A DNA stretch of 20,000 bases from IMG/VR virus record IMGVR_UViG_3300042350_002513, one strand, 5' to 3'. A model generated the notes under the pieces. It saw nothing but the letters and a program-made list of their open reading frames with translations. It had not been told where the DNA came from and ran no database searches. Every line of letters begins with the position of its first letter. Positions within the stretch are counted from its first letter, which is position 1. Origin of the DNA: an uncultured virus (IMG/VR IMGVR_UViG_3300042350_002513). Its lineage: Duplodnaviria; Heunggongvirae; Uroviricota; Caudoviricetes. The position numbers were made by a program, and so were the translations under genes. Shown piece after piece: positions 1,214 through 14,561 of this stretch.

Positions 1214-1239
1214 AAAAAACCCCGCCGTGTGGGCGGGGT
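1214..1239 (-). terminator. intrinsic terminator of 1248-1682 gene
   Basis: A6-CCCCGCC-gtgtg-GGCGGGG just beyond the stop codon. Confidence 0.8.
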
Positions 1240-1247
1240 CGCGTTGG

Positions 1248-1801: not shown

Positions 1802-1987
1802 TTGGCACGGTCCATGCTCCCCAGCACGTTTCATGCCAAGTCTAAGTTGGCACACTTTTTGCTCCCCAGCAAGTCCTATGCCAAGTCCGTCCAAACGATA
1901 GTTTTCCAATCTGGGGTCCCCAATTCCGAAAACTATCAAATCCCCATAGTTGGCATGGTTTCTGCTCCCCAGCAAGGGTCGTGCCAA
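1802..1987. repeat. three 38-bp palindromes, each two face-to-face sigma54-like -24/-12 boxes joined by CCCC
   Basis: TTGGCA-N7-TGCT-CCCC-AGCA-N7-TGCCAA at 1802-1839, 1847-1884, 1950-1987. Confidence 0.8.
1898..1936. repeat. 39-bp cassette-boundary dyad site #1
   Basis: ATAGTTTT CCAATCT GGGGTCCCC AATTCCG AAAACTAT. Confidence 0.92.
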
Positions 1988-2109
1988 GTGCCCGTTAACG
2001 TAGAAAATTAAAGTAGATTTAGTTCTTGTATATATATAAGTATATAGTAAATTGGCATAGTCAGTTTGGTTCTTATATAAATACAACGTCACTATATAAA
2101 TACAACATC

Positions 2110-2538
2110 ATGATCAATATAAATACAATACGCGCTGGTCAGATCGCTACTATACTACTAGAAGGCGAGTATAAATTAAACACTGGTGGCCGTAGTGGTA
2201 TACCACTAAATATATACAAAGGCCGTGTCACTAGAAAGTTCCGTTTTACTATATCGTTGGCGGGTGAAGAAACCTATTATAATATCAATCCCGATGCTAT
2301 TGGTAAACCCACTTGGTTTGAGTTTATCAAAGACGGCGTAGTGAGAAACAAGAAAACCGGCCAATTGTATTTGGCTGGCATTCCTCATAACAACAAGAAC
2401 AACAAGTTTGATTTATATATAGACGGTCGTCCTATTACTAAAGAAGAATACGACTATATTCAACAATATCGCCAAGATAAAGAAGAATGCAAGTTCCTCA
2501 CTATGTCTGTTGATAGTGTAGTAAATGTCGAAGACTGA
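2110..2538 (+). CDS. hypothetical protein, AT-rich paralog B (142 aa)
   Basis: MININTIRAGQIATILLEGE...GKPTW...DSVVNVED aligns end to end with 1248-1682. Confidence 0.85.
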   Translation: MININTIRAGQIATILLEGEYKLNTGGRSGIPLNIYKGRVTRKFRFTISLAGEETYYNINPDAIGKPTWFEFIKDGVVRNKKTGQLYLAGIPHNNKNNKFDLYIDGRPITKEEYDYIQQYRQDKEECKFLTMSVDSVVNVED

Positions 2539-2592
2539 TATATAAACAGTGGGGCGCGAATACTATAAACGCGCATTTAATACTAAAACACT

Positions 2593-2790
2593 ATGAATGC
2601 TAATAAAATAGGTGTTATGGAAATGATTGATATACGAATTGCTATTCAAGCAGAGATAGACAAATGTAATACGCTTATAGCAGAGTGTGACAAAGGTAAT
2701 TACAATAAGGACATCTTTGTTGATAAAAGAGATAGCCTTACTAGAGGTCTAGCTAAATTGAATAAGCAATACTATGATTTCATGCTATGA
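2593..2790 (+). CDS. small hypothetical protein (65 aa)
   Basis: ORF between paralog B and terminator; weak resemblance to 8285-8473 (E..D/E.R.A). Confidence 0.65.
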   Translation: MNANKIGVMEMIDIRIAIQAEIDKCNTLIAECDKGNYNKDIFVDKRDSLTRGLAKLNKQYYDFML

Positions 2791-2846
2791 TAATACTACT
2801 TCTTGTTGTCGTGTTAATAGGCATGACTAGATAAGCCCTTAATGAC

Positions 2847-2880
2847 AAACCCTCTGTAGTAATACAGGGGGTTTCTTGTT
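2847..2880 (+). terminator. intrinsic terminator
   Basis: AAACCCTCTGTA-gtaa-TACAGGGGGTTT followed by T-rich tail. Confidence 0.75.
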
Positions 2881-2905
2881 TATAAATAGTTGTTTATAAA
2901 TAGCG

Positions 2906-2944
2906 ATAGTTTTTGATTTTGGACACCCCGAATCCAGAAACTAT
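2906..2944. repeat. 39-bp cassette-boundary dyad site #2
   Basis: ATAGTTTT TGATTTT GGACACCCC GAATCCA GAAACTAT. Confidence 0.92.
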
Positions 2945-3017
2945 CAAATCAGTGATAAATCACTAGTACTACTATTATTTGGCATTTATTTGTTTAATAT
3001 TTATTTAATATTTGCAC

Positions 3018-3048
3018 AAAAAAACCCCACTGTTTATCACAGCGGGGT
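3018..3048 (-). terminator. intrinsic terminator
   Basis: A7-CCCCACTGT-ttatc-ACAGCGGGG. Confidence 0.75.
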
Positions 3049-3066
3049 ATTGTATTTGTTTAGTGT

Positions 3067-3483
3067 TTATTCATAATGTGGGCGAGGCTCCGCGCTATTG
3101 TCGGATTCGCCGCGCACCTGTTCGATGGTCACCCACAGTTCGCCGCCATCGTTCCATCCTGTGGGGATGTAGCCCTCATCGTGGTACGCCGTGTCACATT
3201 CCTCGCCCGGAAGCGCGGCCATCGCACGATACCGCGCAGGGGCTTCCTCGCGGTTCTCGCGCTCCACTTCCGCCTTGGCCTTTTCAAGCCAAGCCTCGGC
3301 CCCCTCCGTGGTGGGGAAGTAAATTGACCCCTCCAGCGTATTCCTATCGTACCACCAGCCACCTTCCTCGGGTCCACCGTAGTTCTGGCTTCGGCGATAC
3401 ACACTGACCCACGCGCCTTGCGGCACGTTGAAGTCAGGATGGGATTCGATTTTTTCGATCAGCGACTGCATTGTTGTTTTCAT
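3067..3483 (-). CDS. phage-type hypothetical protein (YGGPEEGGWWYD motif), 138 aa
   Basis: GC-rich ORF with a motif recognisable from phage/plasmid hypotheticals; start 7 nt after -10 TATGGT. Confidence 0.8.
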   Translation of the reverse strand: MKTTMQSLIEKIESHPDFNVPQGAWVSVYRRSQNYGGPEEGGWWYDRNTLEGSIYFPTTEGAEAWLEKAKAEVERENREEAPARYRAMAALPGEECDTAYHDEGYIPTGWNDGGELWVTIEQVRGESDNSAEPRPHYE

Positions 3484-3490
3484 CGTCCAC

Positions 3491-3518
3491 ACCATAACAC
3501 CCGCACAAGGGAAAACAA
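3491..3518 (-). promoter_or_regulatory. sigma70-type promoter, near-leaderless
   Basis: TTGTTT-N16-TATGGT-N7-ATG. Confidence 0.5.
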
Positions 3519-3532
3519 GGGCGAAAGTGATT

Positions 3533-3574
3533 TGTCACAGGAATTTAACAATCGCACTTGGCATGGTCCTTGCT
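3533..3574 (+). promoter_or_regulatory. PhoB/OmpR-like direct repeat plus sigma54-like box
   Basis: TGTCACAggaaTTTAACA-N7-TTGGCATGGTCCTTGCT. Confidence 0.55.
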
Positions 3575-3579
3575 TCACC

Positions 3580-3618
3580 ATAGTTTTCCGATTTTGGCAC
3601 CCCAAAAGCAAAAACTAT
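3580..3618. repeat. 39-bp cassette-boundary dyad site #3
   Basis: ATAGTTTT CCGATTT TGGCACCCC AAAAGCA AAAACTAT. Confidence 0.92.
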
Positions 3619-3649
3619 AAAAACTCCGCTATAGTAGTATAACGGAGTT
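3619..3649 (-). terminator. intrinsic terminator abutting site #3
   Basis: A5-CTCCGCTATA-gtag-TATAACGGAG. Confidence 0.7.
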
Positions 3650-3676
3650 ATGTTATTTGTTATCTATTTAACAAAG

Positions 3677-4093
3677 TTAGTCCCATTTTAATGTCCATTC
3701 TTTACCAATAAAGGGACGCATTTCACGCAATTCAAAAGAACTAATACAAGAACTTCCGCACCTAGTCAATTCAGGATTATCATTAGTCTTCCAATAAACA
3801 GTAGATCCATGTATAGAATTAACTATACAAGTACGGGGGCGATAGAAACCAAAATGCAAAAACTTATCTCCCACTTTAATACTATCAGAAAGATCTTTCA
3901 ATCCAAGTGAGTGACAGACAGAAGCTAATCTGCAATTGATCTTATCAAGCTCCAAAGCAATATCACTAGCAGAATGGAAATTAGCATTTGTTATGTTATT
4001 AGCGCAATCGTTGATTTGTTGAATGACAGACTTCACCTCATGCGCGAGCGCGAGGGTGGCGGCGGTAGTGGCGGGGCAGGAGGAGGAACTCAT
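3677..4093 (-). CDS. hypothetical protein (138 aa)
   Basis: start moved to ATG 4093, 9 nt after -10; the longer ORF would overlap the promoter and site #4. Confidence 0.7.
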   Translation of the reverse strand: MSSSSCPATTAATLALAHEVKSVIQQINDCANNITNANFHSASDIALELDKINCRLASVCHSLGLKDLSDSIKVGDKFLHFGFYRPRTCIVNSIHGSTVYWKTNDNPELTRCGSSCISSFELREMRPFIGKEWTLKWD

Positions 4094-4102
4094 GGTGCCC
4101 AA

Positions 4103-4130
4103 AGGGTAGCTGTCGGGAATGAGATTGCAA
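4103..4130 (-). promoter_or_regulatory. sigma70-type promoter, near-leaderless
   Basis: TTGCAA-N16-TACCCT-N9-ATG; shares TTGCAATCTCAT with promoter at 10953-10980. Confidence 0.55.
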
Positions 4131-4139
4131 ATCAATTTG

Positions 4140-4178
4140 ATAGTTTTTCTTTTTGACCTGCCCAAAAGCGAAAACTAT
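4140..4178. repeat. 39-bp cassette-boundary dyad site #4
   Basis: ATAGTTTT TCTTTTT GACCTGCCC AAAAGCG AAAACTAT. Confidence 0.88.
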
Positions 4179-4179
4179 G

Positions 4180-4210
4180 AAAAAACCCCGCTGTACTAAT
4201 ACAACGGGGC
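4180..4210 (-). terminator. intrinsic terminator abutting site #4
   Basis: A6-CCCCGCTGTA-ctaa-TACAACGGGG. Confidence 0.75.
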
Positions 4211-4228
4211 TGTTTATTTATCACTATT

Positions 4229-4432
4229 TCACCAATCAGAATCTTGCCCAGTGGGGTCTTCGTCCCACCCGCGCTGCCACTCAGAATGGCAGGGTTGGCA
4301 AACCGCGCTCCGTGCCTTCGGGGGCATCAAAACGCTGCAACGGGCGCAATGGAAACGCTCTGCGCCGTTTTCGTCGATGACGGGGCAACCGCCAGCTTCG
4401 TGCCCACAACAAGGGAAGTCTTCGCAAGCCAT
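4229..4432 (-). CDS. small Cys-rich hypothetical protein (CEDxPCCG motif, two CxxC)
   Basis: MACEDFPCCGH...CARC...CQPC; fits between promoter and terminator. Confidence 0.75.
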   Translation of the reverse strand: MACEDFPCCGHEAGGCPVIDENGAERFHCARCSVLMPPKARSAVCQPCHSEWQRGWDEDPTGQDSDW

Positions 4433-4517
4433 AATTTTGTATTGATTTTTTAATTGATTCTAACCGTCGCGCAGATTGTCGCTGACTTTTCATCTCAAAT
4501 CAACGGCAAAAATCATT

Positions 4518-4559
4518 TGTCACCAGAATTTAACAATTGGCTTTGGCATGAGATTTGCT
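4518..4559 (+). promoter_or_regulatory. PhoB/OmpR-like direct repeat plus sigma54-like box
   Basis: TGTCACCagaaTTTAACA-N7-TTGGCATGAGATTTGCT. Confidence 0.55.
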
Positions 4560-4564
4560 TCGGG

Positions 4565-4603
4565 ATAGTTTCTGAAATCGGGCACCCCAGATCCAAAAAC
4601 TAT
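4565..4603. repeat. 39-bp cassette-boundary dyad site #5
   Basis: ATAGTTTC TGAAATC GGGCACCCC AGATCCA AAAACTAT. Confidence 0.92.
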
Positions 4604-4688
4604 GAAATAGTGATAAATCAGTGATAAATCACTATTCTTTATTTATATTTGGTTATTATTTGCAGAACATTTGATTAATATTTGACAC

Positions 4689-4718
4689 AAAAAAACCCGC
4701 CGTATTACTACAGCGGGT
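4689..4718 (-). terminator. intrinsic terminator
   Basis: A7-CCCGCCGTA-ttac-TACAGCGGG. Confidence 0.75.
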
Positions 4719-4735
4719 CTCGTATTGTTATTGAA

Positions 4736-4993
4736 TTATGGTTCGTTGATGTATTGATTCCATTTATCAATAGCGTTTGTCAGAATGTATTCGTCAATCT
4801 CAGTGATAGAATCAGCATCAAACACTGATTTATCATAAGCAACGATACTGACATACTGTTGGCGAGTTTCGAGATCATAATCAAATATCACTTCAACAGC
4901 AATATCAGAACCAAACACATTAATTTTGGAGTTACAAACACTGAGATTCCCTTTGTTTTTAAGGGTTCCGTTTACAATAGGAATGAGATGCAT
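4736..4993 (-). CDS. hypothetical protein (85 aa)
   Basis: ORF just upstream of terminator; second gene of the cassette. Confidence 0.65.
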   Translation of the reverse strand: MHLIPIVNGTLKNKGNLSVCNSKINVFGSDIAVEVIFDYDLETRQQYVSIVAYDKSVFDADSITEIDEYILTNAIDKWNQYINEP

Positions 4994-5001
4994 ATGATTT
5001 A

Positions 5002-5199
5002 TCAGAAGCGGCTGAGATGCAATTCGTACAATTCCTGAAAGTATAAATCAGTGATACTATCACACTCAGCTTCTGTTAAATCGCGATTCAATTGTTTATG
5101 AAAAGCGGAATCGACATAAGCATTGCAGCTACCGGGATTAATGATAATAACTTCCTCTAAATCACTAAACTTGATTGTGGTTTTTGTATTAGTACTCAT
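5002..5199 (-). CDS. hypothetical acidic protein (65 aa)
   Basis: start moved to ATG 5199 (MSTNTKTT); the longer ORF crosses site #6. Confidence 0.65.
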   Translation of the reverse strand: MSTNTKTTIKFSDLEEVIIINPGSCNAYVDSAFHKQLNRDLTEAECDSITDLYFQELYELHLSRF

Positions 5200-5294
5200 G
5201 TTGTGTTTATAAATAAGAACAGTCCGACACTGAAGCTTACCACGCCCACGGAAGGAGTAAACAGGTATTTTTGACCAATTTTGATACCTAATCG

Positions 5295-5333
5295 ATAGTT
5301 TTCCGTTTTGGGCTGCCCAGATCCAAAAACTAT
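5295..5333. repeat. 39-bp cassette-boundary dyad site #6
   Basis: ATAGTTTT CCGTTTT GGGCTGCCC AGATCCA AAAACTAT. Confidence 0.92.
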
Positions 5334-5405
5334 GCCGAGAGCATAGGCGACAAACCCTGTCAAGCACTTTATTTGCACTTTATTTGCGTCAAATTGGAAT
5401 ATTTT

Positions 5406-5433
5406 TTGACAACCGCCAGCGATCTGATAACTT
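5406..5433 (+). promoter_or_regulatory. sigma70-type promoter, near-leaderless
   Basis: TTGACA-N16-TAACTT-N9-ATG. Confidence 0.7.
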
Positions 5434-5442
5434 GTCCCCGTC

Positions 5443-5721
5443 ATGAATCAACACCAACACATCGACACCGCCAGCGACCTCCGCGACCTCATCGCCATTG
5501 CGCCCACGGAGGAAACTCCCGTCGCCGAAGTCCCCACAACCCAAGTGCAAGTCAGTCAAGACATTTTTCTGGAAATGCGCGTCCAGCTTATGGCCTATCG
5601 CTCCGACGTTCGCTACTTCATGAACGGCATCATCGGCGAAGAAGAGAAGAAGAAAACCATTGACAAGTTGAACCAAGTCCTTGAAGACTCGGCTTGGGGA
5701 AAAGTCAAGATGATTTACTGA
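5443..5721 (+). CDS. hypothetical protein (92 aa)
   Basis: ORF bracketed by promoter and UUCG hairpin. Confidence 0.75.
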   Translation: MNQHQHIDTASDLRDLIAIAPTEETPVAEVPTTQVQVSQDIFLEMRVQLMAYRSDVRYFMNGIIGEEEKKKTIDKLNQVLEDSAWGKVKMIY

Positions 5722-5730
5722 AAAAACTCA

Positions 5731-5750
5731 CCCCGCTTCGGCGGGGCTTC
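5731..5750 (+). terminator. GC hairpin/terminator abutting site #7
   Basis: CCCCGC-TTCG-GCGGGG; weak U tract. Confidence 0.65.
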
Positions 5751-5789
5751 ATAGTTTCCAGAACGGGGCACCCCAGACGCAAAAACTAT
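5751..5789. repeat. 39-bp cassette-boundary dyad site #7
   Basis: ATAGTTTC CAGAACG GGGCACCCC AGACGCA AAAACTAT. Confidence 0.92.
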
Positions 5790-5830
5790 CCCCTTCGCTC
5801 CCGCGAAGAAAAAGATTTTTGGTTTTTTAT

Positions 5831-5858
5831 TTGACTCTTTCGGGCCAAAGTTTAATCT
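5831..5858 (+). promoter_or_regulatory. sigma70-type promoter, near-leaderless
   Basis: TTGACT-N16-TAATCT-N9-ATG. Confidence 0.7.
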
Positions 5859-5867
5859 GTAGGGGTC

Positions 5868-6068
5868 ATGAGCAAAACGATTGAATTTTACAACCGCGAA
5901 GTCTACGGCAACCTGCGCGAGTACGTTGCCAACGAAGGTGACGCAAACATCATTTACCGCTTGACGGGAAAGAAAACCATCACTAGTGTGGAGCGCGAGT
6001 TGATTCGTGACCTCTCCGGTGGTCTGATTCATTTCAAACAAATTTTGCCCCCTTCGAAGTCGAAGTGA
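5868..6068 (+). CDS. phage-type hypothetical protein (VYGN...LTGKKT motif), 66 aa
   Basis: ORF directly after promoter. Confidence 0.75.
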   Translation: MSKTIEFYNREVYGNLREYVANEGDANIIYRLTGKKTITSVERELIRDLSGGLIHFKQILPPSKSK

Positions 6069-6084
6069 GGGTGGGTTAAGGCAC

Positions 6085-6262
6085 AAGCGGCATGGTACGC
6101 AGGGAGACCCTGCGGCGGGTTAGTTGAACCTTTAGAAACACCGCTTTTTAGATTGGGTTCGCGTCAAATGGTACGCAGGGAGATCCTGCGGCAGGGTTTT
6201 TTCTAAGAGAATAAGACTTGTTCTCTTTTGGGTTTTGACCCTCATGAAACAGACGCGAATCC
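6085..6262 (+). ncRNA. tandem pair of putative three-way-junction RNA motifs
   Basis: units 6085-6146 and 6155-6262 share ATGGTA-CGCAGGGAGAYCCTGCG-GC...GAAACA with different but base-pairing closing stems; strand inferred from cassette direction. Confidence 0.55.
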
Positions 6263-6267
6263 TTTCG

Positions 6268-6306
6268 ATAGTTTCGGGCAATGGGCACCCCCAACAAAAA
6301 AACTAT
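6268..6306. repeat. 39-bp cassette-boundary dyad site #8
   Basis: ATAGTTTC GGGCAAT GGGCACCCC CAACAAA AAAACTAT. Confidence 0.92.
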
Positions 6307-6324
6307 GAAAAACGATTTTTCTTT

Positions 6325-6353
6325 TTGACAATCAACGCCGATTCCATTAACTT
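6325..6353 (+). promoter_or_regulatory. sigma70-type promoter, leaderless
   Basis: TTGACA-N17-TAACTT-N7-ATG. Confidence 0.7.
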
Positions 6354-6360
6354 GTCCCCG

Positions 6361-6666
6361 ATGAAATTAATGACGAAACAACTCACTGAAAAACTCAAAA
6401 AGGCCGGTTCTGACGGCATGGTCCCCATTTGTAAGCTTTTCACCCCGTGGGGTGCCGTTACTTGGTTGATCACTGGGATCGAAGGTGGCATCCTTTACGG
6501 GTTCGCTGACTTGGGCATGGGTTGCGTTGAATGGGGCGGGATCGCTTCCGTGGAAGAATTGGAAGCAATCAAGGGACCGCTTGGAATGACCATTGAGCGT
6601 GACTTGTACTGGCAACCCAAGGAAGGCGTGAATTACTTTGAACTTGAAACCCTCGCGGCTGTTTAA
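6361..6666 (+). CDS. DUF2958 family protein (101 aa)
   Basis: KLFTPWGAVTWLIT...GFADLGMGCVEWG...ELE...GPLG..IERDLYW; start moved to 6361. Confidence 0.8.
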   Translation: MKLMTKQLTEKLKKAGSDGMVPICKLFTPWGAVTWLITGIEGGILYGFADLGMGCVEWGGIASVEELEAIKGPLGMTIERDLYWQPKEGVNYFELETLAAV

Positions 6667-6668
6667 TT

Positions 6669-6851
6669 ATGAGAGAATCTGTTTATGCTGCCGAGTGTTG
6701 GGCTACTGATAAATCAAAAGAAGAAATCCAATCAGAAATCAATTACTTACAAAACCTTTGGAAGATTAAACACCCAAACCCTTTCCCTAAAAACGCACAC
6801 TATAGTCACATCAGGATTGTAACACTAAAAGAAATCCTTAAGAATAAATAA
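6669..6851 (+). CDS. hypothetical protein (60 aa)
   Basis: tightly packed operon ORF. Confidence 0.6.
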   Translation: MRESVYAAECWATDKSKEEIQSEINYLQNLWKIKHPNPFPKNAHYSHIRIVTLKEILKNK

Positions 6852-6853
6852 AT

Positions 6854-7057
6854 ATGAATCCAAACTATAGACAACTCGCTGAACGTGAAAAACATTTAAT
6901 CCCAAAAGAGTTCTGGGATATGATGGAATCACAAGCTTGGGAGCGTGGACATTCAAGTGGACAACAGGAAGTCGATTTACTACTGATGAATCTAGTGAAT
7001 GATTTTGTTGACGCTACTATCAAATACACTATAAGAACTGGTAAGACGCTTGTTTAA
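6854..7057 (+). CDS. hypothetical protein (AWERGHSSG motif), 67 aa
   Basis: tightly packed operon ORF. Confidence 0.7.
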   Translation: MNPNYRQLAEREKHLIPKEFWDMMESQAWERGHSSGQQEVDLLLMNLVNDFVDATIKYTIRTGKTLV

Positions 7058-7061
7058 TAAT

Positions 7062-7187
7062 ATGTCAATCGACGAAATTCTTTTTAATTACAACAAAGCA
7101 TACGATAAACTAGTTCATTGCGCCGAAAATGAATATGAAGTAGCAGAAAAGAAATTGCAATATTGGCGGCATTTATTTTTCAGATAA
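7062..7187 (+). CDS. small hypothetical protein (41 aa, not in ORF track)
   Basis: MSIDEILFNYNKAYDKLVHCAENEYEVAEKKLQYWRHLFFR fills the gap between neighbours. Confidence 0.55.
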   Translation: MSIDEILFNYNKAYDKLVHCAENEYEVAEKKLQYWRHLFFR

Positions 7188-7188
7188 T

Positions 7189-7383
7189 ATGAAAGCTCTC
7201 ACACTTCAACAGATACAAGCTAACTTAAAAGAATGGATGGGTGATAGTATAAAGCCCGATACCAGAAGCGGAAAACTTGCAGAGCGTACTTACATAAAGG
7301 CTCTTTTAGATACAGGCGCAACTGTTCCGCCGATTTGCATTATACTACTACAGAGTGGACGTAGTATTGTAAACTTCAAATAA
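7189..7383 (+). CDS. hypothetical protein (64 aa)
   Basis: last ORF before terminator. Confidence 0.65.
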   Translation: MKALTLQQIQANLKEWMGDSIKPDTRSGKLAERTYIKALLDTGATVPPICIILLQSGRSIVNFK

Positions 7384-7390
7384 ATAGTAA

Positions 7391-7410
7391 CCCCGCCCCG
7401 GCGGGGCTTT
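7391..7410 (+). terminator. intrinsic terminator abutting site #9
   Basis: CCCCGC-CCCG-GCGGGG-CTTT. Confidence 0.7.
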
Positions 7411-7411
7411 C

Positions 7412-7450
7412 ATAGTTTCCGAAATTGGCCTCCCCGAATCAAAAAACTAT
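7412..7450. repeat. 39-bp cassette-boundary dyad site #9
   Basis: ATAGTTTC CGAAATT GGCCTCCCC GAATCAA AAAACTAT. Confidence 0.9.
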
Positions 7451-7468
7451 CAAATCGAAAAAAAATCT

Positions 7469-7496
7469 TTGACACTCTCCAAGAATCTGATATTTT
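7469..7496 (+). promoter_or_regulatory. sigma70-type promoter, leaderless
   Basis: TTGACA-N16-TATTTT-N7-ATG. Confidence 0.65.
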
Positions 7497-7503
7497 CTCT
7501 CAC

Positions 7504-7896
7504 ATGAACAAAATCACTTTGTCTCTATTTGTCGTCGCCCTTGTAACCCTTGGGTTTTCCCGCCGCAACCACGGCACGAAGGAAGACTTGTTTCGCGCAA
7601 TGGCCCAAGTTGAATCTTCAGGCAATCCCAAGGCAATCAACGCCAAGGAAACTGCCCTTGGAATTTACCAAATCCGCCCCATGTATTTTCTTGACGCTGG
7701 AGTCAAGGGGGCGCATAGTCAGGTGTATGACCCTGCGGTCGCCCGTAAGGTCTGTGAGCGTTACTTTATGCGATATGAGCCTAAAGCTTTTGCCAATAAT
7801 GACATAGAGACTTTGGCTCGCTTGCATAATGGCGGTCCTAATTGGCGCAAAAAAGATACTGATAAATACTGGAATAAAATCAAAAAACACTTGTAA
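7504..7896 (+). CDS. lysozyme-like muramidase (i-type lysozyme/destabilase or SLT-like) with N-terminal signal/anchor
   Basis: hydrophobic N-terminus; QVESSG (catalytic Glu), GIYQI, ARLHNGGP...YWNKIK. Confidence 0.8.
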   Translation: MNKITLSLFVVALVTLGFSRRNHGTKEDLFRAMAQVESSGNPKAINAKETALGIYQIRPMYFLDAGVKGAHSQVYDPAVARKVCERYFMRYEPKAFANNDIETLARLHNGGPNWRKKDTDKYWNKIKKHL

Positions 7897-7900
7897 TAAT

Positions 7901-8002
7901 ATGAGCAACAAAACCTTTGATAGAATCATAAATACTGTAATTACATTACTCGTCATTGCTACTGTTGTTAGTGTTACTGTGGTTTACAATATTATCTTTT
8001 AA
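7901..8002 (+). CDS. 33-aa single-TM membrane peptide (not in ORF track)
   Basis: MSNKTFDRIINTVITLLVIATVVSVTVVYNIIF with 4-nt gaps to both neighbours. Confidence 0.55.
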   Translation: MSNKTFDRIINTVITLLVIATVVSVTVVYNIIF

Positions 8003-8006
8003 TAAT

Positions 8007-8288
8007 ATGGAACTCACTTTTCTTTCTGACCCCGGCCACGGTTGGCTTCGCGTTCCTCATAAATTGCTTGAAGACTGGAATATTGATATCTTAATATCAG
8101 AGTATAGTTATAGAACAAGAGACTTTGCTTACTTAGAGGAAGACTGTGATGCTTCTATCTTCATTGACGAAGCCAAGAAAAGGAATTACAAATATTCTAT
8201 TCACTATAAGTTGATTAAAGACTTCGATTACTATCTCAAAAGCGTTGGCAATTACTATAGATTCAACAATAACCTAAGAACAGCATGA
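8007..8288 (+). CDS. phage/plasmid-type hypothetical protein (DPGHGWL...YLEEDCD motif)
   Basis: start moved to ATG 8007; recognisable motif. Confidence 0.8.
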   Translation: MELTFLSDPGHGWLRVPHKLLEDWNIDILISEYSYRTRDFAYLEEDCDASIFIDEAKKRNYKYSIHYKLIKDFDYYLKSVGNYYRFNNNLRTA

Positions 8289-8473
8289 GTGCAGAATTAA
8301 AAATAACAATACAAGAAGTAGTAGAACTCCGTGTAGCACTAAATAACGCAGAACGCCGTATCAAAGAGCTAATGGCGTTAAAGCATGAAGACTGGCATAA
8401 ATTGTATCATTTAGATATTGATTCAATAGAAAAAGGGAAACAAGCCCTTAAAACTATTATACAAAGAGATTAA
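8285..8473 (+). CDS. hypothetical protein (62 aa)
   Basis: ATGA overlap with upstream ORF; ends before terminator. Confidence 0.7.
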   Translation: MSAELKITIQEVVELRVALNNAERRIKELMALKHEDWHKLYHLDIDSIEKGKQALKTIIQRD

Positions 8474-8478
8474 ATCAC

Positions 8479-8500
8479 AACCCCGCTTCGGCGGGGTTTT
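8479..8500 (+). terminator. intrinsic terminator abutting site #10
   Basis: AACCCCGC-TTCG-GCGGGGTTTT. Confidence 0.8.
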
Positions 8501-8501
8501 C

Positions 8502-8540
8502 ATAGTTTCTGGAATCGGGCACCCCGAAGGAAAAAACTAT
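8502..8540. repeat. 39-bp cassette-boundary dyad site #10
   Basis: ATAGTTTC TGGAATC GGGCACCCC GAAGGAA AAAACTAT. Confidence 0.92.
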
Positions 8541-8567
8541 CCCTTGCAAGAAAAGTGATCATTTCCA

Positions 8568-8596
8568 TTGACGCTTTCCCTTTCAAGGGCTACTGT
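8568..8596 (+). promoter_or_regulatory. sigma70-type promoter, near-leaderless
   Basis: TTGACG-N17-TACTGT-N8-ATG. Confidence 0.65.
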
Positions 8597-8604
8597 TGGG
8601 GCGT

Positions 8605-9480
8605 ATGAATAACACAGTTAAAAACGCTATCCGCCACCTCGTTTGCAAAGCCTATGACGCTTTCGCGCAAAACAAAATAGACATTAGTGTCATATCACTC
8701 CCCGGTTCTTCGTGGGAGTTTGAGAAATACGTTGTTAATCACAGAGACTATTCTAATACGTTTACTACAAACGGATATGGTCTTGAAATGTCACTGTTTG
8801 AATGTGACAGCAGTGAGTATCAGAGCAACTTGCGCCCAGTTGCTGCTATCTTTCCGCATAACAAGACTAGCGCATACATGCTTTCTTGTTCTAATATTAC
8901 TTATCGTAATGAATACATAAACGCTGATAGTGTTAATAAACTCAAATCCAAAAACATTTTCGCATGGTTTGATTTCTGCGGTAATCCTACTACACAAAAT
9001 CTTGATTTAATTAATACCGCTAAGGGCAAGACTGCTACTTTTGTTTTTACTTTCAATACGCACTGGCGTTCTGTCAGTAATCTTAGCCCTGAGATTCTTG
9101 AAGTTGCTAATCAATACAACAAAGGATATGCCATTCAATGCTACTTGCTGCGATTGGCTATTGATTTAGGTTTGTCACTGATTTGGTCTTTTGAGTATGT
9201 GTCAAATAATAATCCCATGATGACTATCTGTGTCAGTAATGACATTAATGTTATCACAAATCGTCCTTTGCAGGTTAAGGACTTCATCACTCACGAAAAG
9301 AAAGACAAAAAGATCAATCTTAATAAGACTAAATTGGTTCTCAATAAACGCGAATTGAGTGCCGTCTATGCGGATTTGAAAGAGCGTGTTAGTGATAGTG
9401 AAATCTGTAACAAACACAATATTAGTACAGGCACACTTGCGGCTTGTAAGGCTTGGATGACTATGTGGAAAGCTTGGTAA
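8605..9480 (+). CDS. hypothetical protein, possible SAM-methyltransferase-like fold with C-terminal HTH-like segment (291 aa)
   Basis: ORF is solid; fold guess from ISLPG / FECD / AWFDFCG pattern and SDSEICNKHNISTGTL. Confidence 0.6.
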   Translation: MNNTVKNAIRHLVCKAYDAFAQNKIDISVISLPGSSWEFEKYVVNHRDYSNTFTTNGYGLEMSLFECDSSEYQSNLRPVAAIFPHNKTSAYMLSCSNITYRNEYINADSVNKLKSKNIFAWFDFCGNPTTQNLDLINTAKGKTATFVFTFNTHWRSVSNLSPEILEVANQYNKGYAIQCYLLRLAIDLGLSLIWSFEYVSNNNPMMTICVSNDINVITNRPLQVKDFITHEKKDKKINLNKTKLVLNKRELSAVYADLKERVSDSEICNKHNISTGTLAACKAWMTMWKAW

Positions 9481-9495
9481 TACAATAGCATTATC

Positions 9496-9518
9496 ACCCC
9501 GCCTTCGGGCGGGGTTTT
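9496..9518 (+). terminator. intrinsic terminator abutting site #11
   Basis: CCCCGCC-TTCG-GGCGGGG-TTTT. Confidence 0.8.
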
Positions 9519-9557
9519 ATAGTTTCCAGATCCGGGCACCCCGAATCCAAAAACTAT
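9519..9557. repeat. 39-bp cassette-boundary dyad site #11
   Basis: ATAGTTTC CAGATCC GGGCACCCC GAATCCA AAAACTAT. Confidence 0.92.
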
Positions 9558-9560
9558 GCG

Positions 9561-9591
9561 AAAAACCCCCTAGTGTTAAACACTAGAGGGT
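9561..9591 (-). terminator. intrinsic terminator
   Basis: A5-CCCCCTAGTGT-taa-ACACTAGAGGG. Confidence 0.75.
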
Positions 9592-9613
9592 GCTTTATTT
9601 GTTATTTGTTGCT

Positions 9614-9808
9614 TTATTCTTTAATATTTTCTTTCTTATCAACAAGCCTATAGACTTTGAAACGAATATTATTAAGGTCTTTTCTAATACTCGCTAATTC
9701 GGCGCGAATCTTTTCGCGTCTGTTTAACAATAGCCTTGCAGACTTTTTCATCTGCTTAAGGTTATTGATTTTAGTTTGCAACTTAGTTATCTGCTTTTCT
9801 TGTGTCAT
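9614..9808 (-). CDS. basic coiled-coil hypothetical protein (64 aa)
   Basis: ORF between Gp88-like gene and terminator. Confidence 0.6.
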   Translation of the reverse strand: MTQEKQITKLQTKINNLKQMKKSARLLLNRREKIRAELASIRKDLNNIRFKVYRLVDKKENIKE

Positions 9809-9872
9809 TTTCTTTTATTGTTTTCTGTTATTATACCTATAACTAATACTATTACAAGTATTGCTATAATCA

Positions 9873-10505
9873 TTAGTGCAATTTGTAACTAACGTTTTTA
9901 ACTGATTTATCCCAACAGGCGCGGCAATTGAGACATTTATTATCTTGATTGGAGGCAGGACAATTGAATGTTTTATCTTTTGACACACCAGAAGTCGTTA
10001 ATCCTAATATCTTAGCAATACCAGTAGGCGCATTGCCGTTTATCATTAGGGAAGAAAGGCGAATAGTGAGATTGGAAGGAATATCACCAAATTGTTTCTT
10101 GTATTGAGTAACAAATGAATATTCCCTAGTGGGTAACCAGAATTTAATACTAGGAAGATTGATAGCAATCTGACAAATCTTTCTCAAATGCTCCACAGAT
10201 TGAATATCTCCACTATCATGCCACCGGAAATAGCCACTAGTTTCTTTTCCAGCAATAGCAATAGTCATAGCGTCAACCCACTCGGGTTTGTTAATAGAGT
10301 CAAATCGTTTTTGTAAAGCGTTTCTGACATTGGGCATGTTATAGAAACCTTTTAATGCATAACACTTAGAACAAACACTATTCTTAATAGACACTAATTT
10401 TCCGCCCGTTTTACAATACTTTGCCGGGATTGAATAGGAGCGGCACGGCATTTTTGAGGGCGCAGAGAGTCCACCAACGAGGTCAAGGGCAAGGTCAAGA
10501 TTCAT
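9873..10505 (-). CDS. phage Gp88-like protein (Cys-rich, radical-SAM-like)
   Basis: SKMP..SYSIPA..C...CSKCYA; FRWHDSGD; FWLPTRE; PSNLTIRLS; CLNCRACW; start 10505 or 10508. Confidence 0.8.
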   Translation of the reverse strand: MNLDLALDLVGGLSAPSKMPCRSYSIPAKYCKTGGKLVSIKNSVCSKCYALKGFYNMPNVRNALQKRFDSINKPEWVDAMTIAIAGKETSGYFRWHDSGDIQSVEHLRKICQIAINLPSIKFWLPTREYSFVTQYKKQFGDIPSNLTIRLSSLMINGNAPTGIAKILGLTTSGVSKDKTFNCPASNQDNKCLNCRACWDKSVKNVSYKLH

Positions 10506-10512
10506 CATGGAA

Positions 10513-10541
10513 AGGTTAACGCAAAGGGCAAACCAGCGCAA
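10513..10541 (-). promoter_or_regulatory. sigma70-type promoter, leaderless
   Basis: TTGCGC-N17-TAACCT-N7-ATG. Confidence 0.55.
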
Positions 10542-10561
10542 CACTTTTGTTGCGTTTTTCA

Positions 10562-10600
10562 ATAGTTTTTCGCGCCGGGGTGTCCAGTTTCAAAAACTAT
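10562..10600. repeat. 39-bp cassette-boundary dyad site #12 (core inverted)
   Basis: ATAGTTTT TCGCGCC GGGGTGTCC AGTTTCA AAAACTAT; core is the reverse complement of the site #2 core. Confidence 0.9.
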
Positions 10601-10614
10601 CAAAATGTAATAAT

Positions 10615-10638
10615 AAACCCCAATCTATCAAATCGGGG
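10615..10638 (-). terminator. probable terminator
   Basis: AAACCCCAAT...ATCGGGG imperfect hairpin. Confidence 0.5.
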
Positions 10639-10681
10639 CTTATTTGACTTATTTGCGGTTAATGTTTTTAATATTTGAAGC

Positions 10682-10945
10682 TTAATGAAAGAAAATTCTT
10701 GACTCGTCTTTGAATGTTTTCTCTTTGCCAGTTTCGTCCCATTCGATACCGTATGTCAAACCTTCTTCGACATGATGTTTATGTAAATAATTGAAACCCT
10801 TGTATTGCTTTGCTTCCATCAGCAGGTCCGTCACGAAGAACTGGAGAGTTCTGCGTTGAATGATCGCTTCGTTTTTGCTGGTGCAAAAGAAGTGATTGGC
10901 TTTCAGTTTGACTGATTCAAGGCTAACCGTTTTACGTTTTGTCAT
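10682..10945 (-). CDS. hypothetical protein (YKGFNYL motif), 87 aa
   Basis: ORF 7 nt after -10 TACTAT. Confidence 0.75.
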   Translation of the reverse strand: MTKRKTVSLESVKLKANHFFCTSKNEAIIQRRTLQFFVTDLLMEAKQYKGFNYLHKHHVEEGLTYGIEWDETGKEKTFKDESRIFFH

Positions 10946-10952
10946 CGGGGAA

Positions 10953-10980
10953 ATAGTAATTCATGGGCATGAGATTGCAA
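10953..10980 (-). promoter_or_regulatory. sigma70-type promoter, leaderless
   Basis: TTGCAA-N16-TACTAT-N7-ATG. Confidence 0.65.
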
Positions 10981-10989
10981 GGGTTTTTC

Positions 10990-11028
10990 ATAGTTTTTTT
11001 ATTCTGGCACCCCAGACCCGAAAACTAT
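10990..11028. repeat. 39-bp cassette-boundary dyad site #13
   Basis: ATAGTTTT TTTATTC TGGCACCCC AGACCCG AAAACTAT. Confidence 0.92.
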
Positions 11029-11039
11029 CGTGGGCAGCG

Positions 11040-11065
11040 AAAAGGGGCACCCCGTAGGATGCCCC
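11040..11065 (-). terminator. intrinsic terminator
   Basis: AAAA-GGGGCACCC-cgta-GGATGCCCC. Confidence 0.7.
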
Positions 11066-11092
11066 GTGCTGCTTCTATTTGGCGATCTGGCG

Positions 11093-11953
11093 TTAGTTGC
11101 TGGCGAGTTTCTTGAACTCGGCTTCGATCAGGCTGGCCTTGTTGAGGGCGACCAACGTGCCCCGGTTGATGCGTTGCGCCAGTTCGTATGAGGTAGGCTC
11201 GACCTGATGCGAGGTGAATTGGGTGACGGCGTTGTACAGGCTCCAGAGACTCCGGTTCTTGTCCTCGCGGTGCGAGGGGTCGTTCCAGATGATTTTGATT
11301 TTGTCCGTGTTGCGGTCAGCGATCACCTTGGCCTTGGTGAGCTTGTCGAGGATAGTGTGCCCCTGATCCTGCTTGATGGAGCGGTCAGCCAAGCGGCTAA
11401 ACACGCTGGTGCTTTCCTTGAAGCCCTCGACCGCGCCAGCCACAACGTCCACAAGGCGGGAAACGTCGAGCTTGTCGGAGTGCTTCTGGGTGAGGCTGAA
11501 CTCATCCTGAAGCGTCTTCAGGCCGTTGGTGCAAACAAGGCGAAGGATGCCCATCTCGAAAGAGACGCGACAGGTGCGGTCGAACGAGTTGTTGAGGATC
11601 AGGCGCAAGCCAAGCTCATCCCCAACCTTGGGCAGCTTCACCAGTTGGTTCTTGAAGTCATACTGGACGTAGACTCGCGCACCGTCGCGCATGGAGTACT
11701 CCTTGCGGGTGAACTCGCCCAACTTGTTGTCGGCGAAGGCGTTCTCGACGGTATCCATCAGGGAGCGGTTCTGAACGAGGGTGTAGCGTTCAGTGCAAAC
11801 CCCAAGCATCTGCTTGGTGTCGGTGCGGCGATTGCCGAGCCAACCAGTGGCTTCGCCGTCAGGGGTGAGAAGCGGGATAGTCTCGACCGTGTAGTCGAGC
11901 AAGCTATCGGCGCGAGTGGTGGCAGTGGCGGGGGTGACGTTGATCTCGGTCAT
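11093..11953 (-). CDS. DUF932/DUF945 family protein (286 aa)
   Basis: LGV.TERY.LVQN; LILNNSFD; RLVCTNG; SLWSLYNAVT; markedly GC-rich codons. Confidence 0.85.
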   Translation of the reverse strand: MTEINVTPATATTRADSLLDYTVETIPLLTPDGEATGWLGNRRTDTKQMLGVCTERYTLVQNRSLMDTVENAFADNKLGEFTRKEYSMRDGARVYVQYDFKNQLVKLPKVGDELGLRLILNNSFDRTCRVSFEMGILRLVCTNGLKTLQDEFSLTQKHSDKLDVSRLVDVVAGAVEGFKESTSVFSRLADRSIKQDQGHTILDKLTKAKVIADRNTDKIKIIWNDPSHREDKNRSLWSLYNAVTQFTSHQVEPTSYELAQRINRGTLVALNKASLIEAEFKKLASN

Positions 11954-11992
11954 AAGTGCAGTGTTGATGTTAAGTGTTAACTGACGGACCAG

Positions 11993-12021
11993 AGGTTAGA
12001 CGGCAATCAAATCAGCCGCAA
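11993..12021 (-). promoter_or_regulatory. sigma70-type promoter
   Basis: TTGCGG-N17-TAACCT. Confidence 0.5.
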
Positions 12022-12059
12022 GTCCTTTTCGCACTTTTTTTTCAGAATCTTTCGGACCC

Positions 12060-12098
12060 ATAGTTTCCTGTGCCGGGGTGCCCAAATCCAAAAACTAT
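12060..12098. repeat. 39-bp cassette-boundary dyad site #14 (core inverted, last copy)
   Basis: ATAGTTTC CTGTGCC GGGGTGCCC AAATCCA AAAACTAT. Confidence 0.92.
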
Positions 12099-12258: not shown

Positions 12259-12332
12259 TGGTTGGGGATGATGGAATCGAACCACCACAAAGAGCTTCAA
12301 AGGCTCCCGCACTACCATTATGCAAATCCCCA
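12259..12332 (-). tRNA. trnQ: tRNA-Gln(UUG)
   Basis: cloverleaf with TGGGGAT/ATCCCCA acceptor, GGAGC-CT TTG AA-GCTCT, TTCGATT T-loop, encoded CCA. Confidence 0.93.
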
Positions 12333-12338
12333 GTAAAA

Positions 12339-12371
12339 GAAAAACCCACTAGTATATTAAACCAGTGGGCT
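12339..12371 (-). terminator. hairpin/terminator after 12388-12603
   Basis: A5-CCCACTAGT...ACCAGTGGG. Confidence 0.55.
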
Positions 12372-12387
12372 GTTATTATTTTGATTA

Positions 12388-12603
12388 TTACGCCTTAACG
12401 TACTTAATCTTACCAGACTTAACAGATAGAATCTTACTGACAGGAACACGACGATCAGCATCAGCATTCACATCATAAAAAGAAACAGTCTTATTAGATG
12501 CAGATAGGATCTGAGCGCAGAACGTGGTGTTCTCCTTCTTAGAACCAACGACTAGGGTAGTGAAACGACCGGCAGTATTATTTAGTGTATCAGTTAATGA
12601 CAT
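12388..12603 (-). CDS. small hypothetical beta-rich protein (71 aa)
   Basis: ORF; FYDVNADADRRVPVSKI loosely recalls phage SH3/WYL_2-like barrels. Confidence 0.65.
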   Translation of the reverse strand: MSLTDTLNNTAGRFTTLVVGSKKENTTFCAQILSASNKTVSFYDVNADADRRVPVSKILSVKSGKIKYVKA

Positions 12604-12613
12604 ACACTACATA

Positions 12614-12754
12614 CTAGTCACCGGAGATCTTTTTATACAAAAAAAATAAAGAAATTCCAATCAATGCAAAACCTGCGGGAATCTTAATCATCATCAATCC
12701 AAATAAGAATAATAGCAAGATAAAAGAATAAGACTGCTCAGTTTCGATTTGCAT
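12614..12754 (-). CDS. small membrane protein (46 aa)
   Basis: start moved to ATG 12754; two hydrophobic segments. Confidence 0.5.
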   Translation of the reverse strand: MQIETEQSYSFILLLFLFGLMMIKIPAGFALIGISLFFLYKKISGD

Positions 12755-12907
12755 ATAAGAAAGAAAAAATAAGTAGAAGGCCCCGATTTTATGAGTTACG
12801 GCGCAGGTTTCAATGAGGTACGAATAACACAGCACAACACGACCTATTCTAGCAGACAATCTAGAATATACTCTTTACCTTTAATTTACTTCTACTTATT
12901 TAAAAAG

Positions 12908-13222
12908 TTAAACTGCGGCGAGCTTAGAAAGCTTGTAGAGAGTAATAGTCATGCACCAATTGTTTCGTTCAAAATGCTTCGCATCAATTTCAATAGTACC
13001 ATCTGGGCATGTAATAACAGCAGCGTTAAGGCTCTCATTTGACACCATCAATTCGCCCACATCTCCATTATCAATGTCACACTTCAGACCTTCACCAGTA
13101 AGATGTATTTGACCATAATACAACCTTTCATCAATTACGCCATAATCAATATCTACCGCATCAGCAGACATAATCTGATTAACAATGTCTTGTGCCTTCT
13201 TAGTCAGCTTAACTACTTTCAT
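12908..13222 (-). CDS. hypothetical protein (104 aa)
   Basis: ORF downstream of TTGACA-N17-TATGGT (13273-13301, minus). Confidence 0.7.
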   Translation of the reverse strand: MKVVKLTKKAQDIVNQIMSADAVDIDYGVIDERLYYGQIHLTGEGLKCDIDNGDVGELMVSNESLNAAVITCPDGTIEIDAKHFERNNWCMTITLYKLSKLAAV

Positions 13223-13348
13223 ATATTTATTTAATTACCACCGAATAGTTGAGCTATCTCCCAACTCTCCAAACCATACTTGACGAATTGCTCTATGTCA
13301 AGCTCCTCATACCGGAAATACGACAGGGAATATCCGTCCCCTTCTTTC

Positions 13349-13513
13349 TTAATGAGAATCATTGTGTGTGGCGGGTAGAGTTGCATTTGATTTCTTTTCG
13401 ATTTCAATTATTTCGCCGATTAGATCATAAAGTTTGTCACTAATATTCCACAAGTTTTTGGTGGCATGGCGATTAATGAACTCCTGTACAATGAATAACT
13501 GCTCTTTTTGCAT
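13349..13513 (-). CDS. small hypothetical protein (54 aa)
   Basis: start moved to ATG 13513; the longer ORF overlaps tRNA-Arg. Confidence 0.45.
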   Translation of the reverse strand: MQKEQLFIVQEFINRHATKNLWNISDKLYDLIGEIIEIEKKSNATLPATHNDSH

Positions 13514-13536
13514 ATTTACTAAGTGTTTGTTAAAGT

Positions 13537-13615
13537 TGGCGTTCCCGACAGGATTCGAACCTGTGACCATTCGCTTAGAAGGCGAAAGCTCTAAATCCAA
13601 CTGAGCTACGGGAAC
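13537..13615 (-). tRNA. trnR: tRNA-Arg(UCU)
   Basis: GTTCCCG/CGGGAAC acceptor, TTCGC-CT TCT AA-GCGAA, TTCGAAT, CCA. Confidence 0.95.
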
Positions 13616-13634
13616 CCAAAAAACCTTATACTCC

Positions 13635-13662
13635 ATTATACACTTTTCTTGCGAAAAGTCAA
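13635..13662 (-). promoter_or_regulatory. sigma70-type promoter for tRNA-Arg
   Basis: TTGACT-N16-TATAAT. Confidence 0.7.
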
Positions 13663-13697
13663 ATCAAAACCTCACTAGAATCTTCTAGCAAGGAAAA

Positions 13698-13847
13698 TAT
13701 TCGATGTTGGTTTACGGGAAAATATTCAGTATTTTTATAATCTACAACACGATATCTTGCGTAGATCAACCCACTCACTCTCCACGATCTATATGTTTGC
13801 AACCATATAGTCTTTCTTCAGCATCATGAGCTTGCTGACATCGAATA
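13698..13847 (-). ncRNA. putative structured ncRNA 1
   Basis: 10-bp terminal stem TATTCGATGT/ACATCGAATA enclosing three hairpins. Confidence 0.45.
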
Positions 13848-13869
13848 AAATTATAAAAGAACTAAAAAC

Positions 13870-14033
13870 ATTTGGTTGATGGCAGAGTCCCAAATTTCTC
13901 TGCTTTATAGATGTTGGATTGGTCTAGAACCTCATCAACCAATTTGATGTTTACTGATATGTAGATTGGATACTACACCTCGCTGAATTAACAGACGGCT
14001 CTAATTAAGCTAATATCAGATATTCAACCAAAT
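13870..14033 (-). ncRNA. putative structured ncRNA 2
   Basis: 10-bp terminal stem ATTTGGTTGA/TCAACCAAAT plus internal hairpins. Confidence 0.45.
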
Positions 14034-14067
14034 TATAAAAAGAACTAAAATCGACCCATTGTTGTCG

Positions 14068-14292
14068 CAGTGTAAGGGGACTTGAAACATTATCCCTTGG
14101 GCGCACTGTTTGTTCGCAGATCAGGTCACTCAGACGCTTGATATACCGGAAACTTCCAGCACCCCAAGCTACGTCTCGCTTGAACGACTGTCCTCATTGC
14201 TGCAAAATTATTTGTGCAGTTTATACAGGATTTTCTGCACTAGCCTCTCTATCAGACTTTGTTAGCTGTCCAAAGCATCAAGCTGAGTCCTG
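14068..14292 (-). ncRNA. putative structured ncRNA 3
   Basis: long bulged stem CAGG-ACTCAG-CTTGAT / ATCAAG-CTGAGT-CCTG enclosing several hairpins, plus 3' hairpin. Confidence 0.45.
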
Positions 14293-14301
14293 TTGGCAAA
14301 T

Positions 14302-14389: not shown

Positions 14390-14391
14390 GT

Positions 14392-14468: not shown

Positions 14469-14561
14469 GAATGAGCGGGAAGGAAACTATTTCCTTAATT
14501 AAATCTAACACACATTAGACATAATTGACTCCGCCGCTCAAAATGATAAAGAACGAAAATT

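Follow-up and report, generated by a model that had tools for sequence, protein, structure and literature searches.

In the usual view, a sigma-54 promoter is a single switch on the chromosome that is gated by an activator, and the sigma-54 holoenzyme can form stable closed complexes even when no activator is present. An open promoter is mimicked by 6S RNA, which sequesters the sigma-70 holoenzyme. The available portion of one paper gives the sigma-54 consensus as TGGCACN5-7TTGCT (PMC12316311). Between the cassettes of the hyperplastic regions of T4-like phages lie composite terminator/promoter sequences, the PeSL motifs, as described in the available portions of two further papers (PMC4122927, PMC2839356). 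A full-text literature search returned no account of phages in which sigma-54 boxes form palindromes or arrays. Here we analyse a 20,000-nt stretch of DNA (the window) in which boxes resembling sigma-54 promoters are arrayed around a central palindrome between two divergent genes; elements of this kind are known, but the arrangement is new. The DNA comes from a tailed lake-water phage whose GC content is about 35%.

The sequence TTGGCA-N7-TGCT-CCCC-AGCA-N7-TGCCAA occurs at 1802-1839, 1847-1884 and 1950-1987, giving three 38-bp palindromes with six exact TTGGCA-N7-TGCT boxes. The boxes of each palindrome face each other: those on the + strand lie at 1802-1818, 1847-1863 and 1950-1966, with predicted starts at about 1829, 1874 and 1977, and those on the - strand at 1823-1839, 1868-1884 and 1971-1987, with predicted starts at about 1812, 1857 and 1960. 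By reading the sequence and by pattern search, we found all six half-sites given in a preliminary description of this DNA to be exact, with the letters as given there. Two single + strand boxes, at 3558-3574 and 4543-4559, were absent from its list. Together these make 8 exact matches to the 17-nt pattern TTGGCANNNNNNNTGCT in the window, against 1.50 expected, and 8 matches to the eight-letter core TGGCA-N7-TGC, against 0.51 expected; for neither pattern did any of 200 shuffles reach 8. In all 8 boxes the GG and GC dinucleotides are exactly 10 bp apart, and palindromes 1, 2 and 3 (numbered from the left) are all kept in relatives.

Of the two boxes in each palindrome, one is directed at gene A and its partner at gene B, the genes on either side of the array. 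The single boxes are each placed 5 nt before a copy of the central site described below, and both are oriented away from the nearby gene starts, at 3495 (- strand) for the box at 3558-3574, where this is the nearest start, and at 4432 (- strand) for the box at 4543-4559. Because each faces a site copy and then a terminator, neither can drive a protein gene. Just past the -12 element, the palindromes have a GC-rich tract (CCCCAGCA), which would be poor for melting. We rejected an RNA hairpin formed from the palindromes, as the N7 parts of the two arms are not complementary (e.g. CGGTCCA vs CGTTTCA), and for the same reason no cruciform is conserved.

Two other short motifs were noted near the boxes. 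An imperfect inverted repeat at 1776-1795, TTGTCAC-N7-TAACAA, adjoins the outermost box and is kept in relatives; it is also found beside both single boxes, at 3532-3551 and 4517-4536. In each of the three GC-rich - strand cassettes, it lies 6-7 nt from the outer side of a box. Other lineages have related ATTGTCA repeats close to their arrays. The motif GGG(A/C)ATGAGATTGCA, at 4116-4131 and 10968-10983 and about 10 nt from two site copies, is like the box at 4543 with one base fewer before the GC, and on the - strand it gives TTGCAA hexamers upstream of - strand genes.

The palindrome boxes are found again in 22 contigs of IMG/VR, and a single integrative element in a Chthoniobacter MAG has them too. 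We compiled box statistics from 21 related loci (93,052 bases) and from the 143 distinct boxes of the related IMG/VR loci. The GG/GC spacing is strictly kept: in the 21 loci, TGGCA-Nx-TGC has 169 matches with N7, compared to none with N6, 4 with N8, 5 with N5, 4 with N4, 1 with N9 and 9 with N10. The neighbouring letters are biased as well. A T precedes TGGCA in 128 of the 143 boxes and follows TGC in 141; the three positions after TGGCA favour C or T (74 and 68 boxes), G or A (93 and 48) and G or A (77 and 34). By these position counts, the unfixed positions of the box agree with the extended sigma-54 consensus YTGGCACGr-N3-TTGCW, which Barrios reportedly gave in 1999. In close relatives, the N7 letters vary freely while TGGCA and TGC stay constant, and whole boxes are gained or lost.

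Similar to the bacterial sigma-54 promoters glnAp2, nifH and pspA, the boxes have the -24 GG and the -12 GC, an invariant spacing and the same flanking preferences, including TTGCT. The sigma54-like identity first proposed for them is well supported by the strict N7, by the agreement with the consensus at degenerate positions and by a motif that is constant while the central palindrome differs. Genome evidence points the same way, in that the sole bacterial genome with the palindromes has rpoN, three activator genes and seven TTGCT-type boxes. Judged from sequence, it is probable that the boxes are sigma-54-class recognition elements.

The boxes are independent units, since the gaps between them vary, some stand singly and others run in tandem; this would fit a factor for which a single 17-nt box is a complete target. 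Among 47 distinct facing pairs from the 21 loci, the gap from TGC to GCA is 6 in 28 pairs, 5 in 5, 7 in 8 and 10 in 6. A gap of 6 corresponds to the 4-bp CCCC spacer of the preliminary description, which, present in only 28 of 47 pairs, does not stand as a conserved feature. Back-to-back gaps are 7 or 9, plus one 23-nt case. In one related locus (L038, 1795-2130), seven boxes point in one direction, five of them in tight tandem with a 26-28-bp period and a last step of 46 bp, and the run lies upstream of TTGACT-N17-TATTCT and a gene. A dimeric-repressor operator spanning the palindrome was rejected, as the facing gaps (5, 6, 7 or 10) are not fixed and single and tandem boxes exist.

Every lineage has a central palindrome with boxes on either side. 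The box motif stays constant, whereas this palindrome is wholly different between lineages (ATAGTTT.., GAGTTGCA.., GGGGCCCC.., CCCTTGAT..). Given that the motif stays constant while the centre changes, the simplest account would be a conserved host factor acting on the boxes and lineage-specific factors acting on the centre. The common layout is an outward box, a palindrome, the centre, a palindrome and another outward box; in several relatives, L012 and L008 among them, the array ends in single boxes that are directed outward, towards the flanking genes. The window has two palindromes to the left of the centre and one to the right, and its array looks like a deletion variant of the common layout. 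Chromosomal sigma-54 promoters are single, whereas here six to eight boxes occupy each control region, alternating or in tandem, with a 26-45-bp period. The block is best explained as part of a GC-rich mobile regulatory cassette.

The centre of the window's array (site #1 of the preliminary description) is a palindromic 39-bp site at 1898-1936, which reads ATAGTTTTCC...GAAAACTAT and has the arms ATAGTTT and AAACTAT on either side of GGGGTCCCC. Gaps of 13 nt separate it from palindrome 2 (1885-1897) and from palindrome 3 (1937-1949), so that the spacing reported earlier is exact on both sides in the window. In an alignment of ten arrays of this lineage, from which an eleventh (L043) was left out, the left gap is 13 nt in 10 of 10 and the right gap in 9 of 10, the exception being L002 with 12 nt. 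Comparable to the enhancer or DNA-bending site of sigma-54 promoters that have an upstream enhancer, a palindromic, putatively protein-binding site lies near the boxes.

A hairpin or attC-like reading of the 39-bp site was rejected. In 31 distinct copies, inner positions 9-16 and 26-33 pair only 19-58% and show no compensatory pattern; the outer arms are set by the search pattern and so are no evidence for pairing. Because the inner parts pair only to this extent, we read the site as a protein-binding palindrome rather than a conserved hairpin, that is, as a lineage-specific and putatively protein-binding element.

The 37-nt core of this site, TAGTTT..GGGCACCCC..AAACTA, has 14 copies, all within 1899-12097 of the window and none elsewhere in the 67 kb examined. 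The wider context had escaped the preliminary description, which missed the 13 further site copies and the divergent paralogous genes. Most copies stand directly behind an intrinsic terminator hairpin, which may be on either strand: the copy at 5751-5789 directly follows a hairpin and that at 8502-8540 lies behind one, 4140-4178 adjoins a - strand terminator (4184-4211), 9519-9557 lies between convergent terminators, and 7412-7450 lies between a terminator hairpin and a promoter-like site at 7469-7496. The copies at 3580-3618 and 4565-4603 follow the single boxes, and the copy at 2906-2944 is directly behind two TATAAATAG motifs. Further copies are found at 5295-5333 and 10990-11028, at 6268-6306, which is 19 nt before a TTGACA box, at 10562-10600, where the centre is in reverse orientation, and at 12060-12098, where the centre is also reversed and a TTGACA box follows after 21 nt. 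Sigma-70-like hexamers follow most copies at variable distance, often only 7-9 nt before an ATG without a Shine-Dalgarno motif; they were called by eye and are candidates only. The site copies mark the cassette boundaries of a 10-kb variable region.

Similar to PeSL motifs, as far as the available portions of the two papers describe them, short regulatory motifs (terminator, site, promoter) are here repeated between small variable genes of one plastic region, and the cassettes differ between close relatives. The confinement of the 14 copies to 1899-12097 of 67 kb, most of them beside terminator hairpins, is likewise of the PeSL type. Unlike PeSL motifs as described in those portions, the repeated unit contains a 37-39-bp palindromic site that is itself no terminator hairpin, and some units carry sigma-54-type boxes. 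No T4 core genes were recognised among the 36 proteins scanned of the 47 kb upstream, with about 36% of the genome sampled.

The 190-bp block of boxes and site stands between the divergent genes A (1251-1682, - strand; 143 aa, 59% GC) and B (2110-2538, + strand; 142 aa, 38% GC), which are full-length paralogues with 50% identity. Behind gene A is an intrinsic terminator at 1218-1240 (- strand), and the array is followed on the other side by an AT-rich tract at 2000-2110. The A family forms 48 clusters in metagenomes. Proteins A and B belong to no family in Pfam, PHROG or NCBIfam and have no sequence match in the PDB. With a structure model of pLDDT 87.5, Foldseek returned nothing at E <= 0.001, and a wide structural search returned only small beta-barrel (Sm/Tudor/BAH-like) matches with a best Z of 5.2; the modelled fold is thus weakly like a small beta-barrel. 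An Atlas search gave sub-threshold leads, including Phage_ProQ_C_like at 0.83. The GC-rich copy of the A/B family remains GC-rich in AT-rich relatives.

Sigma-70-like hexamers, again called by eye, lie between the array and the start codon for genes A and B, and for the genes behind the arrays of L038 and L046. A simple sigma-70 promoter scan did not rise above chance (8 vs 8.4 expected, and 18 vs 13.1 in a second scan), and of the candidates called by eye it flags only 7469-7496.

As to how the arrays work, the reading that we favour, with slightly less than even confidence, is that they are docking sites for the host sigma-54 polymerase and serve as poised, bidirectional, activator-gated promoters between genes A and B. 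The boxes would be sigma-54 (RpoN)-class -24/-12 elements read by the host sigma-54 RNA polymerase, and each 38-bp palindrome, being two independent facing boxes, would dock one polymerase in either direction. Two polymerases at once on one palindrome are improbable because each predicted start lies inside the opposing box, in agreement with the earlier remark that convergent boxes 4 bp apart are unlikely both to fire. The polymerase would be held on the boxes in closed, poised complexes. An ATP-dependent activator, be it an enhancer-binding protein of the host or a factor that occupies the central site, would then fire the boxes to the left into gene A and to the right into gene B. The outcome would be a conditional mode of expression beside the candidate sigma-70-type promoters nearer the genes. 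While the motif, its strict spacing and conservation, the independence of the boxes and their association with a central palindrome are observed directly, we infer the binding and firing by sigma-54 and the activator.

Several points stand against a promoter reading. Boxes at a 26-45-bp period cannot all hold the holoenzyme simultaneously, the partial records contain no recognised activator, the tract after the -12 element is GC-rich, and the single boxes face no gene. Unlike glnAp2, nifH and pspA, moreover, these boxes are carried by a phage and an integrative element, two of them are geneless, and a cognate activator was not found in the partial records. Specifically, enhancer-binding proteins (PF00158) were not found in four partial phage records (G001, G002, G004 and G005; 16-45% complete). 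PF04552 was absent from these same records, 16-45% complete, which gave no support to the earlier idea that the phage encodes a protein with the DNA-binding domain of RpoN. The palindrome was in none of the bEBP-bearing viral contigs among the matches listed (80 of 131).

Some of these points would suit boxes that do not fire. Such boxes could act as a sink or parking lot that sequesters sigma-54 or its holoenzyme, or could form a roadblock or insulate cassette borders; arrays on replicating phage DNA would then silence sigma-54-dependent host responses. The preliminary description had proposed that the array may be a decoy, sponge or tether for host sigma54-RNAP. All of the evidence for sigma-54-class boxes counts here too. 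A box density (26-45-bp period, five in tandem in L038) above the need of one promoter, single boxes that have a site copy and a terminator in front of them and no gene, a GC-rich tract downstream of the -12 element and phage contigs (partial records) in which an activator was not found are all consistent with this explanation. A sink needs no fixed place, yet the arrays surround a central palindrome in a regulatory intergenic region with the 13-nt gaps kept, and the outward single boxes in relatives look like promoters. Moreover, the 67 kb examined contain no more than 8 boxes (and the 61-kb record G002 has 10 core-motif matches), so titration would depend on genome copy number. We consider non-firing boxes unlikely on balance. 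It is tempting to speculate further, though we think it rather doubtful, that dense sigma-54 docking arrays, present in lake phages and in an integrative element that resembles a satellite, act as a DNA decoy or parking lot and, on replicating DNA, capture the scarce sigma-54 or holoenzyme of the host. If so, sigma-54-dependent stress and defence programmes would be shut down, or poised polymerases would be kept at cassette borders. Such an array would be a DNA counterpart of 6S RNA, as both would be nucleic-acid decoys for one form of RNA polymerase; unlike 6S RNA, which is a host-made RNA directed at sigma-70, it would consist of double-stranded phage DNA putatively aimed at sigma-54. We did not find such a takeover strategy described in our literature search.

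The likeness to the sigma-54 consensus could instead be coincidental, the arrays being operators for a phage- or element-encoded binder unrelated to sigma-54, namely a monomer whose two DNA-reading heads are spaced by one helical turn. Arrays that lie beside small genes without known function, including the A family, and upstream of candidate sigma-70-type promoters, where regulators bind, would fit such a protein, as would the fact that no activator was found in phage genomes only 16-45% sampled. This coincidence would have to span nine fixed letters, the spacing and four degenerate positions. Furthermore, the motif does not co-vary with lineage as the central site does, it occurs in a 61% GC integrative element that has no protein in common with the window's cassettes by tblastn, and a dimer across the palindrome is excluded by the variable gaps. 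Nor was a DNA-binding domain recognised in the neighbouring small proteins: none of 16 gave a match above threshold, the one lead being Phage_DsbA (E 0.035) for 5005-5199. An unrelated binder therefore seems to us quite improbable. Least probable, and very unlikely, is a structural element of replication or recombination, either an origin at which transcripts from the boxes prime both ways or a hotspot of cassette shuffling. A nested palindrome lies where transcription diverges, with the AT-rich tract 2000-2110 after it; boxes and cassettes are gained and lost between relatives, and the site repeats at cassette borders as PeSL motifs do in the available portion of their description (PMC4122927). 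Against this, cumulative GC skew has no turning point at the locus, on which ground we rejected a replication origin, and the N7 parts of the palindrome arms are not complementary and so offer no conserved cruciform. The inner parts of the site are only 19-58% complementary, and they vary too much to support either homologous exchange or a stable hairpin. Within the window, the array has no recombinase next to it, and the only enzyme nearby is an HNH endonuclease (361-876).

If the arrays are read by sigma-54, as in the poised promoters that we favour or in a sink, the phages of an uncultured lake host either use enhancer-dependent transcription or manipulate the host's sigma-54 pool. A lead to this host comes from the exact palindrome, which occurs in one contig among 185,579 species genomes. 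This contig (L060; contig C116 of G003) is 7,955 bp long with 61% GC, encodes a tyrosine integrase and a D5-type primase, and is binned into the Chthoniobacter MAG. The MAG has rpoN and three full enhancer-binding protein genes, and elsewhere in it are seven further TGGCAYR-N4-TTGCW boxes, all ending in TTGCT, compared to 0 in the reversed control. Of 401 genomes searched of the MAG's phylum, only the MAG itself contains the palindrome; because the other 400 lack it, the palindrome appears to be a feature of mobile elements and not of the chromosome. Such integrative elements may be the source of the phage's GC-rich cassettes, although tblastn found no protein common to the integrative element and the window's cassettes. 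A sequence signature in which strict N7 boxes surround a lineage-specific palindrome connects AT-rich phages that look lytic with a GC-rich integrative element of the Verrucomicrobiota. This link is a testable lead to the host, whose identity we infer from one contig assigned to the MAG by binning, and to gene flow between phage and element. In the contig, two of these palindromes (691-785) precede, at a distance of about 130 nt, a gene that has a weak helix-turn-helix match.

Two IMG/VR records overlap the window, one of 61 kb (estimated 36% complete) and one of 27.5 kb (estimated 16% complete). Genes for a tape-measure protein, a large terminase, very large tail fibres and PhoH are found in the 47 kb upstream, all on the - strand. 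No DNA or protein match to this phage was obtained from 50,697 deposited phage records, and an IHF/HU-type protein (PF00216) was not found in phage records G001 and G002. The first 12 kb of the window consist of small genes with GC-rich islands (50-58% GC at 1000-2000, 3000-3500, 4000-4500, 5500-6500 and 11000-12000). Island genes at 3067-3495 and 4229-4432 and a DUF932 gene at 11093-11953 have 59-61% GC, which suggests that the GC-rich island genes are cassettes from a GC-rich source.

The HNH-type endonuclease gene (361-876, - strand; phrog_3322, E 7.7e-25) adjoins the variable region, and its product has weaker matches to the Srd anti-sigma factor and decoy of host sigma-70 families (E 5e-10 and 5e-7). 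Six tRNA genes (Gln, Arg, Leu, Met, Lys and Asn) lie on the - strand at 12259-14776. Repeats of TATAAATA(C/G), which we take to resemble T4 late promoters, occur three times before or across the start of gene B (2072-2128) and twice directly before the site copy at 2906 (2880-2905). The early + strand genes at 5400-8610 seem leaderless, with TTGAC(A/G/T)-N16-17-TAnnnT 7-9 nt before the ATG and no Shine-Dalgarno motif, and the downstream genes in this region are joined via TAATAATATG-type junctions; these leaderless-looking genes may hint at the translation signals of the host.
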